The notes below the pieces were generated by a model that worked only from the letters and a program-made list of their open reading frames with translations, was not told the origin of the DNA and did not search any database. From positions 256,001 through 320,000 of the forward strand of contig CM000155.2 of the NCBI GenBank assembly GCA_000004695.1: 64,000 nt of DNA, read 5' to 3'. Origin of the DNA: Dictyostelium discoideum. Lineage: Eukaryota. Positions 4,638-17,157 of the stretch are shown here, one piece after another. The position numbers were made by a program, and so were the translations under genes. Within the stretch, counting starts at the first letter, position 1. Every line of letters starts with the position of its first letter.

Positions 4638-7600
4638 ATGGTTAAAGGTAAAATTAATAAAAAAAAAAAAAAAAAAAAAAAAAAATAATAATAATAATAA
4701 TAATAATAATAAAATTAATAGTTGTATTAATTTTTTTTTTTTTTTTTAATTTAAAATAGATAGATTAAAAGGATATGCACAATGGCATCATGTTGTTCCA
4801 AGAAAAGAAAGAAATAATCCAACGATTATTCAACTAGCTAAACATTTTGGAATTTCAGTAAATAAATTTATAAATGATAGTAGTAATTTAGTTAGATTAC
4901 CAAATAAGAGATGTGTTGAGATGATGTATGTAAAGAATAGGCTTGTTCATCATGGTTATCCACGTTGGCATAGAAAATATAATTTAATTTGTAACAAGAG
5001 ATTAATCGATATATTTGTAAATTATTCAAAAGATTTAAACAAAATGTATGAAAAATATAAAGAACTTCAAAATGATTTAAAATCGTATATAGGTTATGAC
5101 AAAAATAGATTAAACGAAAAAATGGATGACGGGCTAGCTCATCTCAGACAAAAAGGTTATGAAAAACATTTACAAAGAGTTTCTCAACAAAATTTAGAAA
5201 AAGATAATAATTCAAGTAATTTAAAAAACTATACCCATTATTCATCATTAACAAATGGTGCTTTAAAATCGTCACACATTGGTGGTGTTGCTGTAATTCC
5301 AAATTTATTTAAAGGTTGGTCAGATTCAATCTCATATTTCACTCAATCATCTCATATTTTATGTATGAATTTAAATGATAATAATAATAATGATAATAAT
5401 AATAATGATAATAATAATAATAATAATAATAATAATAATAATAATAATAATAATAATAATAATAATAATAATAATAATAATAATAATAATAATAATAATA
5501 AAGAGTTTGAAGTTGAAATTATTGAAAAATTAGAAAATTTAGAAATAAATTATAATGATAAAGAAAAAGAAATTAAAGATTATATTAATTCAAAAGAAAC
5601 CAATCAAATAATCAAAGAGTTAATTTATGGTATTTATGAACATGATACATTACCATTCTTTTCATTACATTTTAATGAAAATGGTACAATGTTTCCAATT
5701 ATTCATCCAGCTTATCAGAATACATTAATTGGTGAAGTGATATTAATGTTGGATTATTATATGAAGGGATTTTTACATGGTGGTTTCTATGATAGGGAAT
5801 TTGTAAGTAAATGGGATTCAAAGGATGATTTGAATAAAACTTTAGATTGTGAAATTTTAAAACAAAATTTAATTGATATAAAAAAAGAGATTGAATCAGG
5901 TACTTGGATTCATTTAAAGGAGAAGATTAAATATAAATCGTTAAGAGAAAGGGCATTTGAAATGGGTTTGGAGGGTAGTGGTGGTTTAGAAGATTTACAA
6001 TCAAATTTAATGGATTTGAATTTGGATATAACCGATCCATCAATTGTAGCATTAAATAAAGCATATGATAATTTAAAAGCTTATAAGGGTTTAAAATATC
6101 AAACTTCATTTAGAATTTTAGCAAATGAACAATCTGCTCAATCAATTGATGGAATTTGGATTATCGATAATAATTTCACAGTAAAATATACAATTGAACC
6201 AACTTATCCATATCAACAATATTTGAATTCATATAAAGTTGTATTTGGTACATTACCAAAAGAATATCAAATTCAAGATCAATTATATACTGAAGTTGCA
6301 AATTCAATCTCTAAACAAATGCCACTTTTACCACCATGTAAAAAATATTTCTTTTTATTATCACAAATTTCTTTTTTTTCAAATTATATTTCAACTTTAA
6401 AAAGTTGTGGTCAAATTCCAAAATTAAATTATCAACAAAAACAAGTAAAAGAAGAAGAAGAAGAAAAGGAAGAAGAAATAAAATTAAATTTTAAAACACC
6501 AAGTCAATTACCACCATTACCAGTTAGATATTTTAAAGGTATAAAATTAACATTAACAGTTGGTGAAATTATTAAATCAATTTGTGATGCTGCTGATGCT
6601 GATGATGATGAAAATAAAGATATTTTAAATTGTTTAAAAGAATATGGTAAAATCAATTTTAAATTTGAAATTGAAAATTTACAATCACCAATTTCTATTG
6701 ATAATAATAATAATAATAATAATAATAATAATAATAATAATAATAATAATAATAATAATAATAATAATAATAATAATAATAATAATAATAATAATAATAA
6801 TAATAATAATAATAATATTGAATCAATTAAATCTTCACATGAATCATATAAGAATTTAATTAATAAATTATCAAATCTAATATCAAATTTAATGATTAAT
6901 AAAATTAAAACTTTAACAAATAATACAAGTGAATACAATTTTAAAGATATTGAATTAAGTGAATATTGTGATAATTTAGCAACTGGATTTTTAGTATTAA
7001 TGAAATCAATTATTGGAATTGTTGAAATTAGTAAATTTCAAACATTATTTTATATGATGGCTCAATATCTTTACATTTTAGAATCAAAAACTGATAAAAT
7101 CGCTTCACAATTTGGTGATGTACCTTGGCCATTATCAAGTACATTACCAAAAATTGATTTTGAAAATCAAACAACCACTATTAATCCTGAACATCATTCT
7201 AAAATGTTTGAATGTGTTCAATCATTTCATAATGATTGTAAAAAATTTAATATAAATTTAAATGATATTGAAAACAGTTGTCAATCAATTATATCAACTT
7301 GTAAAAATCAAATACTTTTTGAATTATGTGATGGTTGTAAAGGTGATTTTCAAATGCATTCTGAACAAATTTACAAAGTTGATTCAATTTGTAGAATCAC
7401 CTATGAAAGAAATATTCGTAAAGAATTAAATCAACAATTGAATCAACTTCAAGAGAAATATAATCAACAATATTGGTTCACATCTTTCTTTTTAGGTACG
7501 AAAAGAAAATTGAATGAAACAAAGTTAATATTGGATAGATTAGATAGTGTGCTTGATTTTGCAATCCCACCATCATTGGAAGAATTTAAAAAGAGTTTTG

Positions 7601-16600: not shown

Positions 16601-17157
16601 CAATGACAAGATTAATTCAATGTCAAATTGAAAAGAAAAATTATCAATTACTTGAAAGATTCTTTAATTTACTTTCAAATTTAAGATTATTCTTTAAATC
16701 TTCAGATTCAATTAAAAATAATTTAAATAATTTAGATAATAATAATAATAATAATAATAATAATAATAATAATAATAATAATAATAATAATAATAATAAT
16801 AACTTTAATATTAAATGTAAATGTAAAGATAATCAATTTTCAAGATTTATTAAATCACCAATAATTATCCAACTTTTAGAATCTAGTGAAATTTTATTAT
16901 TAAATCCATCAGAAAGTAATATAATATCATTTGTAAATAGATTAGAAAATTCAATAATTCAATTAATTCAACAAGAATGGGCACAATTTTTCACAGATTT
17001 CTCTGAATTATCTTCACCATCAAATTATTTATCAACGATTTCTTCTACTCCTGAAGAATTTTTTAATGATTGGTGGTATAACCAATCAGTTGCTTCTTGT
17101 TTAGAAGAAAATATTCATTCTCATTTAGAATCTTTAATTTTAAATTTAAATCTTTAA
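4638..17157 (+). CDS. Giant multidomain protein (~4120 aa): N-terminal region of unknown fold, two large ankyrin-repeat arrays, and a complete SecA-like ATPase motor near the C-terminus. Exons approx 4638..4647 (micro-exon ATGGTTAAAG) and 4760..17157.
   Basis: Single 12.2 kb ORF 4921..17157. The frame stays open upstream to 4750, and a typical dictyostelid micro first exon ATGGTTAAAG|gtaaaatt (4638..4647), with acceptor aaaatag at 4758/4759, joins it in frame (MVK-D-RLKGYAQWHHVVPRKE...).

ANK arrays lie at nt ~8290-9930 (FGNTKLHLAAENDYYEIIDQMV, GITPLYSSIYEGYTKIAEKLI, NTALHIALTFGNLENACQLIKNGA, GTALHIAVENGSYDFVKHLL, GYTPLMVSLENGYPEIANLIL, WSLIHLAVRANHIGLV...) and nt ~11530-12760 (RSTPLMNACSVGNNFSVLKLLQNGAD, GESALFYC, LNALHLAALNDCHRIVITLFQCGV, KSPLELALMNGNITCAFILM).

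SecA homology runs over nt ~14820-16450: RIAQVLTGEGKSTIVALLASYCAILGRTIDIITTSEYLAQRD (SecA: [38 protein letters not shown]); ILFGTNTNFEFALLGDKL (ITYGTNNEYGFDYLRDNM); LVIVDEVDSLFMDSA (YALVDEVDSILIDEA, Walker B); a PPXD-like segment DYVIMYES...VVIVDKDNTGRLMNGSRYSDGLHEFIEVKHG...GLTGTCGEDSERSEL ([38 protein letters not shown]...GMTGTADTEAFEF); VATNTAGRGTDIKL (IATNMAGRGTDIVL); GGLHVIFAFYPANLRVECQGLGRSGRQGQNGSCRII ([36 protein letters not shown]).

Long (AAT)n poly-N tracts interrupt the protein. Confidence 0.8.

Follow-up and report, generated by a model that had tools for sequence, protein, structure and literature searches.

A stretch of 64,000 nucleotides from Dictyostelium discoideum (assembly GCA_000004695.1, contig CM000155.2, positions 256,001 to 320,000 of the forward strand), referred to below in its full length as the window, contains a giant gene in which ankyrin arrays are followed by a motor related to SecA. 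As a preliminary description of this DNA had proposed, both lie in one uninterrupted open reading frame (ORF) on the + strand, 12.2 kb and 4,078 codons long (4921-17157), with a Pfam SecA_DEAD match of 1.4e-53. Work on SecA, the textbook case of an ATPase that pushes polypeptides, has centred almost exclusively on the SecY channel. It is highly probable that the gene is, by identity and origin, a fused and domesticated dictyostelid copy of a module known otherwise from bacteria inhabiting amoebae and other eukaryotic hosts, where it usually consists of two neighbouring genes, one for a giant protein of 2,000-4,400 amino acids (aa), with a variable head, a conserved “domain X” and ankyrin arrays, and the other for a SecA-like ATPase. 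The initial picture of a complete bacterial SecA on a native scaffold should be replaced by that of a whole endosymbiont effector-like module, fused and domesticated. Homologues are already present in public databases under automatic “SecA family” labels; the conserved partnership of a SecA-derived motor with giant ankyrin proteins is new, and no description of the pairing, domain X, the fusion or the dictyostelid genes was found in the full-text literature.

The motor forms the C-terminal part of the protein and contains two nucleotide-binding domains (NBD1 and NBD2) and an insertion at the PPXD site. All eight motif strings quoted in the preliminary description are present, at exact coordinates:

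14521-15327, + strand: N-terminal helices and first part of NBD1; SecA_DEAD 1.4e-53; aligns to the canonical SecA hidden Markov model (HMM)
14953-14970, + strand: Walker A, TGEGKS, exact match
15043-15060, + strand: YLAQRD, exact match
15268-15300, + strand: Walker B, DEVDSLFMDSA, with DEVD at 15268-15279
15328-15855, + strand: insertion of ~175 aa at the PPXD position, PPXD-like only C-terminally (DYVI...VVIVDKDNTGRLMNGSRYSDGLHEFIEVKHG)
15655-15678, + strand: DYVIMYES, exact match
15769-15834, + strand: GRLMNGSRYSDGLHEFIEVKHG, exact match
15856-16440, + strand: rest of NBD1 (motif III GLTGT) and NBD2 (motif V TAGRGTDI); P-loop_SecA 3.5e-24, Helicase_C 6.6e-5
15913-15939, + strand: GLTGTCGED, exact match
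16261-16299, + strand: ATNTAGRGTDIKL, exact match
16378-16416, + strand: GLGRSGRQGQNGS, exact match
16384-16404, + strand: motif VI of NBD2, GRSGRQG
16441-17157, + strand: family-specific helical C-terminal domain, with a poly-Asn insert at 16736-16802, stop codon included

Judged by its sequence, this is a real SecA-type motor with intact ATPase motifs, and it belongs to a SecA-like clade distinct from canonical SecA. The SecA_DEAD match covers residues 3254-3678 of the ORF, the best sequence matches in the PDB are Clostridioides difficile SecA2 (6.6e-58) and Bacillus subtilis SecA (1.4e-53), and the NBD2 region is ~40% identical to canonical SecA. SecA matches are specific and exceed those to generic helicase models and to the DinG/XPD fold class by more than 20 orders of magnitude. 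In the 42-sequence alignment of the clade, which includes the window, the Walker A (GxGKS), DExD, TGT and RGTD columns are invariant, and R623, R626, Q627 and G628 of motif VI are at least 90% conserved; the first arginine of the canonical LRGR is replaced by leucine in the window (GLGR). Because the catalytic columns are invariant or nearly so, these proteins have been under selection and are presumably active ATPases, in agreement with the initial suggestion of a possibly active enzyme.

The motor is also set apart from canonical SecA. A search of 5.8 billion clustered proteins with the motor gave a sharply bimodal score list: the upper mode holds 41 proteins at 280-736 bits, all without the SecA_SW (PF07516) and SEC-C (PF02810) annotations, and the lower mode, from 232 bits downwards, consists of canonical SecA, nearly all with PF07516. 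The window and the 41 clade members align to a canonical SecA HMM, built from 50 sequences, at positions ~13-550 only, that is, over NBD1, PPXD and NBD2; positions 262-313, inside PPXD, are unaligned in the window, which gives no alignment beyond about position 580. Neither the window nor any of the 41 members has a Pfam match to SecA_SW or SEC-C, so that the apparent absence of recognisable scaffold, wing and zinc-binding domains, noted at the outset, is borne out; of a zinc-binding motif, the window tail has no more than an isolated “CKCK”. On the NCBIfam SecA and SecA2 models the motor scores 165-276 bits, against curated cut-offs of 725-1,493; the highest, 276 bits, is on a model with a cut-off of 862, and the SecA2 models give 236/930 (TIGR03714), 165/725 (TIGR04221), 185/1,100 (NF012136) and 236/1,085 (TIGR04397). 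Of the “complete bacterial-type SecA” first described, both NBDs and the order of the motifs therefore stand, whereas membership of SecA itself does not. The insertion is at the right site for a PPXD, but SecA_PP_bind (PF01043, an annotation carried by most clade members) matches the window at 7e-6 and 27 bits, against a cut-off of 23.5, over its last 27 positions only (84-110 of 110). Pfam and the automatic databases label homologues “Protein translocase subunit SecA”, but with these scores, and with no SecA_SW or SEC-C match, a true Sec or plastid-type translocase subunit is hardly credible, and the same holds for contamination and for a dead pseudogene, considered below.

Structure prediction agrees with the sequence analysis. 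An AlphaFold2 (AF2) model of the motor segment computed from the clade alignment reached a predicted local distance difference test score (pLDDT) of 84.6 and a predicted template modelling score (pTM) of 0.85. In a Foldseek comparison with the PDB the top 36 matches are all SecA or SecA2, at E-values from 1e-30 to 1e-19, and the next fold class, DinG/XPD, follows at ~1e-8. The model superposes on the isolated Escherichia coli DEAD motor with a template modelling (TM) score of 0.82, and on SecY-engaged full-length SecA with 0.65-0.68. The insertion at the PPXD site is modelled mostly as helices, followed by a β stem.

The ~240-aa tail, set aside at first as low-complexity sequence, is in fact a family-conserved domain that is confidently modelled as helical (pLDDT mostly 75-92), interrupted by a poly-Asn run of ~25 residues. 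Conservation within the clade reaches at least 90% at two of its positions, R686 and W820 in segment numbering. In the AF2 model the tail opens with a 53-residue helix about 50 residues past motif VI, roughly the position of the long scaffold helix in SecA structures. The tail was also considered as a diverged scaffold and wing, and this was rejected at the sequence level: hhalign against the canonical scaffold and wing gave probabilities of 29% and 8%, and an hmmsearch “W...” alignment had no posterior support. A scaffold remnant in the tail is possible in view of the modelled 53-residue helix and the TM-scores of 0.65-0.68 to full-length SecA.

The part of the protein that precedes the motor is divided as follows:

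4777-5073, + strand: candidate AHH-type (HNH/EndoVII) nuclease-like head, protein aa 10-108, with WHHVVP, NLVRLP and VHHGYPRWHRKYN
5584-6606, + strand: domain X, protein aa ~279-619, 340 residues
8290-9930, + strand: ankyrin array 1, Pfam Ank_2 2.6e-44
11530-12759, + strand: ankyrin array 2, Pfam Ank_2 5.3e-23, with a poly-Gln interruption at 11968-12069 (tandem CAA)
12760-14520, + strand: linker, conserved among dictyostelid homologues only

The two ankyrin arrays are thus where they had been placed, and Ank_2 reaches 2.6e-61 over the whole ORF. The ~1,000 N-terminal residues, by contrast, had been called unrecognised, but they hold two conserved units, the AHH-like head and domain X. Pfam gave nothing significant on the stretches outside the ankyrin and SecA regions, and neither domain X nor the linker has a Pfam match. 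Phmmer matches to the linker are confined to Polysphondylium, Heterostelium and Acytostelium proteins.

Domain X is recognised by strongly conserved motifs (PFFSLHF, VIHPAYxNTLVG, LDYxMKGxLNGG, SFRII and DFxVxYTI). It is confidently modelled by AF2 (pLDDT 84.4, pTM 0.81), and no fold in the PDB matches it. The window copy matches bacterial giant proteins at E-values from 1e-28 to 1e-59; a non-repeat stretch at about aa 282-627 is common to the window and to metagenomic giant proteins, with 31-34% identity (1e-28 to 1e-49). When the first 1,180 residues were compared by HMMER with 1.84 billion representative proteins, 400 matched at E<=1e-3 and 165 at E<=1e-30. The best 150 of these are nearly all 2,000-3,700 aa long, and aa ~279-619 is always the common stretch. 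Word-indexed searches with domain X, as a single sequence or as a 24-sequence profile, returned two and six short matches, respectively, none of them in a protein longer than ~1,500 aa, though the true relatives have 2,000-4,000 aa. Giant proteins appear to be under-represented in the word-indexed collection, where similar cases could be hidden.

In bacteria, domain X and the SecA-like motor are found together. A giant ankyrin gene lies directly upstream of the SecA-like gene, on the same strand, in all five informative metagenomic contigs, and encodes proteins of 2,206 to 4,388 aa. In one contig the locus stands beside two TLC ATP/ADP translocases, which are a hallmark of obligate intracellular bacteria. 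Scanning the domain X alignment against one genome per GTDB species yielded 54 loci. The hosts include Chlamydiae (Parachlamydiaceae, Simkaniaceae, Protochlamydia, and Rhabdochlamydiaceae including a symbiont of Dictyostelium giganteum), the legionellae L. drancourtii, L. nautarum, L. moravica and L. worsleiensis, a Coxiella metagenome-assembled genome (MAG), the Holosporaceae bacterium “Namur”, Mycoavidus, several Gammaproteobacteria, Neisseriaceae and “Verrucomicrobiae” MAGs. A SecA-like ORF is adjacent or fused at 37 of the 54 loci, which are all 37 of the informative ones; the remaining 17 are not counter-examples, because their contigs stop within the giant gene or shortly past it. The adjacent ORF is usually directly downstream, sometimes upstream and once divergent.

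Pairwise distances of domain X and of the motor also correlate across 36 loci (Mantel r=0.77, reached by none of 2,000 permutations), and in both distance matrices the nearest bacterial relative of the window is the same gene, a fused ORF of 3,708 aa in “Namur”, a symbiont of Acanthamoeba. This ORF is collinear with the window, ankyrin arrays included, with 38% identity in domain X and 38.8% in the SecA-like part (3.5e-129). More generally, array 1 of the window aligns with the ankyrin arrays of the bacterial partner proteins. The ankyrin and N-terminal parts are therefore not a native cytosolic scaffold, as had been supposed, but are homologous to the partner of the motor in intracellular bacteria. 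Since they match the obligate genomic partner of the motor, the whole protein was presumably acquired as a unit, which puts a comparison with plastid SecA beside the point.

Several features of the bacterial loci were recorded in addition. No universally conserved third gene or immunity-like gene was found beside the pair. In a chlamydial subclade (loci L012, L013, L015, L023, L036, L039 and L051 among them) there are extra ORFs of ~280 aa in 12 loci, ~212 aa in seven and ~416 aa in eight, for example at 1224-2171, 5740-6411 and 6420-7673 in L012; the ~280-aa ORFs contain a Gly-rich hydrophobic stretch and the ~212-aa ORFs a hydrophobic segment. Several of these loci have the SecA-like gene upstream of its giant neighbour. 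Some bacterial SecA-like proteins are enlarged, such as the 2,456-aa ORF at L016:1608-8975, P0003 and P0019. Ankyrin repeats may be carried by either partner, since some of these proteins have them C-terminal to the motor.

The one-to-one pairing across phyla with different secretion systems would be expected of a dedicated export unfoldase, that is, a SecA-like ATPase that, in the manner of a SecA2 accessory system, would serve solely to unfold its very large and stable ankyrin-solenoid partner and feed it into a Sec, type III or type IV secretion channel. The closest sequence match in the PDB being a SecA2 points the same way, and SecA-like ATPase domains in giant actinobacterial toxins (Kaur et al. 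2021, PMC8195603) were predicted by Aravind and colleagues to aid secretion. On this view the copy in the amoeba is either a relic or has been put to a new use, pushing the protein across an amoeba membrane. However, the scaffold, two-helix-finger and SecY-coupling region are undetectable by sequence, and the family heads that were read by eye show no obvious signal peptide. In addition, the motor has stayed catalytically intact and fused across deep dictyostelid splits, where there are no bacterial secretion machines. We consider this explanation unlikely.

The head of the window protein contains, in order, QWHHVVPRK, NLVRLP and VHHGYPRWHRKYN, corresponding to the HH, N..LP and H.G..H..Y motifs of AHH-type nucleases, which make up a ββα metal finger in that superfamily. 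An HMM built from three AHH-type heads of the family matches window aa 10-108 at E=1.2e-5 and 19 bits; among 198 heads the runner-up scores 0.44. Run directly on the window, Pfam AHH (PF14412) gave no match at E<=10. An AHH-like nuclease head is thus likely, not proven. Across the family the region upstream of domain X is variable: 183 heads fall into 35 BLAST clusters, the largest with 115 members. Pfam identifies AHH in the homologue P0168 (1.9e-15), whose head is among the three behind the HMM, Ntox28 (3.9e-7) and Lipase_3 (3.8e-5) in others, and there is a Scabin-like/pertussis-S1 ADP-ribosyltransferase head (1.4e-9); the dominant cluster has no Pfam match.

Two further observations on the heads were made by eye. 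Those of Heterostelium and Polysphondylium (P0122 and P0121) are unlike that of the window and show a stretch resembling an HNH-type motif, “HCHHINSKKH...DPRNLLLVNEKNHREAKQAH”, which is supported neither by Pfam (E<=0.01) nor by the AHH-head HMM. In P0234, P0236, L022, P0262 and P0157, long Gly/Ala-rich hydrophobic stretches resembling GxxxG zippers are placed between the enzyme domain and domain X, and recall membrane-inserting or chlamydial Inc-type hydrophobic segments.

A nuclease-like head on a superfamily 2 (SF2) ATPase might also indicate a nucleic-acid motor, a helicase or translocase that would act on DNA or RNA and feed the AHH head. The motor does have weak matches to Helicase_C, DbpA, SrmB, DpdF and Cas3, and DinG/XPD is its second-best fold class. 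This is nevertheless very improbable, given the specificity and far greater strength of the SecA similarity, the insertion at the PPXD site, and the many family heads that are of lipase, ADP-ribosyltransferase or unassigned type, not nucleases.

The layout from effector head through repeats to NTPase, with interchangeable heads, is also compatible with an immune or conflict sensor of NLR/STAND-like logic, in which ankyrin repeats would sense a ligand, the ATPase would switch and the head would be a death or defence effector; moreover, the eukaryote that has kept the gene is itself prey to intracellular bacteria. This analogy is quite improbable. The motor is a translocase/helicase-type SF2 ATPase and not a STAND or AAA+ switch, and the PADLOC anti-phage defence models gave no membership, with domain X and the head unmatched and weak, generic helicase-C matches only (DpdF 2.9e-4). 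The bacterial hosts are obligately intracellular with reduced genomes, TLC transporters adjoining one locus, and ankyrin proteins of such bacteria are classically host-directed effectors.

The setting of the gene in the window is that of a genuine nuclear gene. Its immediate surroundings are:

3277-4068, + strand: CSN8/PSMD8/eIF3K-family ORF, the upstream neighbour, of a eukaryote-type family
4638-4647, + strand: putative 5' micro-exon ATGGTTAAAG, followed by a GT..AG intron at 4648-4759
17229-17810, - strand: ORF of a DUF4291 protein, match 1.5e-61
18574-19443, + strand: flanking ORF of a class I methyltransferase

AT content is extremely high throughout the window (GC 0.16-0.27 per kb), and the GC content of the giant gene is in line with that of the adjacent genes. 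At a GC of 0.23, with ~0.097 stops per random codon, the chance of a frame of 4,078 codons staying open is ~1e-181. In-frame trinucleotide arrays (AAT/ATA x22-43, CAA x34) at 5374-5501, 6701-6817, 11968-12069 and 16736-16802 encode poly-Asn and poly-Gln between the conserved units, and also within the C-terminal domain of the motor; these runs are host-type insertions into a gene with bacterial ancestry. Host-like composition, the poly-Asn and poly-Gln runs and the eukaryote-type upstream neighbour speak against bacterial or symbiont contamination, as the preliminary description had held. A pseudogene is contradicted by the open frame and the conserved motifs, and both are contradicted by homologues in other dictyostelid genomes. 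No paralogue of the giant gene was found within the window.

The same reading frame is free of stops back to 4750, and its first in-frame ATG is at 4921. Two of the three conserved head motifs, WHHVVP (4783-4800) and NLVRLP (4885-4902), lie 5' of this ATG, so an upstream start is needed. Splicing of the micro-exon to 4760 would keep the frame and give a predicted product of 4,135 aa; the head homology upstream of the first ATG independently supports such a 5' exon.

As to other Amoebozoa, where the preliminary description had suggested looking for homologues, collinear or partial ones occur in Heterostelium, Acytostelium and Polysphondylium. The Heterostelium album homologue (GL290986.1) is collinear with window aa 117-3899. 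It is annotated as two genes in the same frame, of 2,159 aa and 1,524 aa (PPL_05043), parted by a single TAA near L006:9898, with homology running across it (L006:9850-10060); the TAA could reflect a genuine split into two genes, as in bacteria, or else an error of sequencing or an artefact of annotation. The giant homologue of Acytostelium subglobosum has 3,441 aa and that of Polysphondylium violaceum, labelled “SecA family profile domain-containing protein”, 3,268 aa. In Dictyostelium cf. discoideum (GCA_054859205.1) there is a stand-alone SecA-like gene of 619 aa, P0002 (L063:10001-12390), 58% identical to window aa 3358-3966, with the tail matched too. There is no domain X or ankyrin gene upstream of it, and its neighbours are non-syntenic (KxDL, FNIP, RraA-like and Ty3-type gag). 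The gene is apparently a paralogue whose giant part was lost or was never present.

A neighbour-joining tree of 97 motors (200 bootstrap replicates) was rooted on the long branch to canonical SecA, represented by only 20 of its best-scoring sequences, of which the named ones are from Firmicutes. The split between the SecA-like clade and canonical SecA is found in all 200 replicates. The dictyostelid motors included were those of Acytostelium, Heterostelium, Dictyostelium cf. discoideum and the window; Polysphondylium was left out because the match of its protein to the motor model stops after the first ~212 positions. These four group together as a clade in 95% of bootstrap replicates, with Acytostelium branching first, then Heterostelium, then the two Dictyostelium sequences, an order that agrees with the usual species grouping. 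This clade is basal in the family in 16.5% of replicates only and is usually nested among bacterial motors. With the module elsewhere bacterial, an origin by horizontal transfer, one of the options first raised, is the most likely. The most parsimonious course is one ancient transfer of the whole module, possibly already fused, from an intracellular bacterium to an early dictyostelid, followed by vertical descent in which the gene took on host base composition and gained low-complexity inserts.

Regarding function, the C-terminal unit would be a SecA-derived ATPase that still grips polypeptide and moves or unfolds it by ATP. It probably still grips polypeptide, since both RecA-like domains, the catalytic motifs and the insertion at the PPXD site are kept; it is presumably not a Sec translocase, because the elements through which SecA engages SecY and SecB (scaffold, two-helix finger, wing and zinc finger) are unrecognisable. 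Its client may be the giant protein itself, whether a separate partner or linked in cis, or a protein bound by the ankyrin arrays. A role in the eukaryotic cytoplasm, as part of an effector in which the motor would, for example, deploy or regulate the nuclease-like head, is suggested because the motor has remained intact in an amoeba devoid of bacterial secretion machinery; this also argues against a role solely in export from the bacterium. An ATP-driven polypeptide clamp that works with the giant partner, and not with SecY, is a tentative proposal, offered with less than even confidence. A bolder version is a self-contained ATP-powered delivery weapon outside the numbered secretion systems: the motor would thread the N-terminal toxin head of the giant partner through the membrane of a host or target, domain X would serve as the membrane or translocation element, and the ankyrin repeats would do the targeting; amoebae might then use the captured fused copy against ingested or invading bacteria, or between amoeba strains. 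This we regard as a long shot.

Several points weigh against the reading preferred here, a domesticated bacterial module with a polypeptide clamp. The AHH call in the window amounts to 19 bits against a three-sequence HMM, with Pfam silent, and a toxin head is seen in a minority of the family, since 115 of the 183 heads have no Pfam match. P0002 shows that the motor can exist without a partner in cis. The nesting and the direction of transfer are suggestive only, because the tree is a neighbour-joining one with a long-branch root and a narrow sample of SecA, and a 2014 Legionella study placed a SecA DEAD-like protein among genes transferred from eukaryotes (PMC4256840). Every step of the mechanism is an inference, and SF2 motors also act on nucleic acids, to which the weak Helicase_C, DpdF and Cas3 matches would correspond. 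With these points taken into account, the combination of module identity, origin and mechanism remains the best explanation, to which we assign a probability of roughly 0.55.

The family can be set beside three known systems. It shares with canonical SecA the two RecA-like domains, the order of the motifs, an insertion at the PPXD site and the top fold match, but it lacks a detectable scaffold/two-helix-finger, wing and SEC-C, for which it has its own helical tail; its motor adjoins or is fused to a giant ankyrin protein, and the window copy is nuclear in an organism with no plastid. SecA2 proteins have retained the scaffold domain and act together with SecY or SecY2. Like the SecA2 of accessory Sec systems, the motor is a SecA paralogue dedicated, by gene neighbourhood, to one very large partner; unlike SecA2, it has no recognisable scaffold and can be fused to that partner. 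Polymorphic and host-directed ankyrin toxins (latrotoxin-like) likewise carry interchangeable toxin or enzyme domains on a constant ankyrin carrier, whereas in the module the variable domain is N-terminal instead of C-terminal and the carrier has domain X and is coupled to an ATPase.

Related domains have been mentioned in amoeba-associated bacteria. “SecA-like helicase-related” domains were noted in a single line at the C-termini of Amoebophilus asiaticus effectors (Zhang et al. 2012, PMC3482391), and Legionella fallonii lfa2470 was listed, also in a single line, as “[SecA DEAD-like]” (Gomez-Valero et al. 2014, PMC4256840). These proteins, too, were flagged as effector-like or eukaryote-like, but the papers describe no domain X, giant-ankyrin pairing, fusion or dictyostelid homologues; the likeness is by mention alone, and Amoebophilus was not among the matches of the domain X scan of GTDB species genomes. 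A preprint on the chlamydial symbiont of D. giganteum reports many unusually large ankyrin and TPR proteins, with SecA unmentioned.

These results delineate a separate SecA-derived lineage that has shed the recognisable channel-coupling parts and is tied genomically to giant ankyrin proteins, some of them toxin-headed, in Chlamydiae, Legionellales, Holosporaceae and other host-associated bacteria. They define a widespread, unstudied candidate effector module in amoeba-associated bacteria, to which the 340-residue domain X adds a domain without a known fold, and they amount to a clear example of endosymbiont-host transfer of a very large multi-domain gene. The motor lineage has been captured and kept intact by social amoebae, which makes Dictyostelium a tractable eukaryotic model for a SecA-type motor away from the Sec channel.

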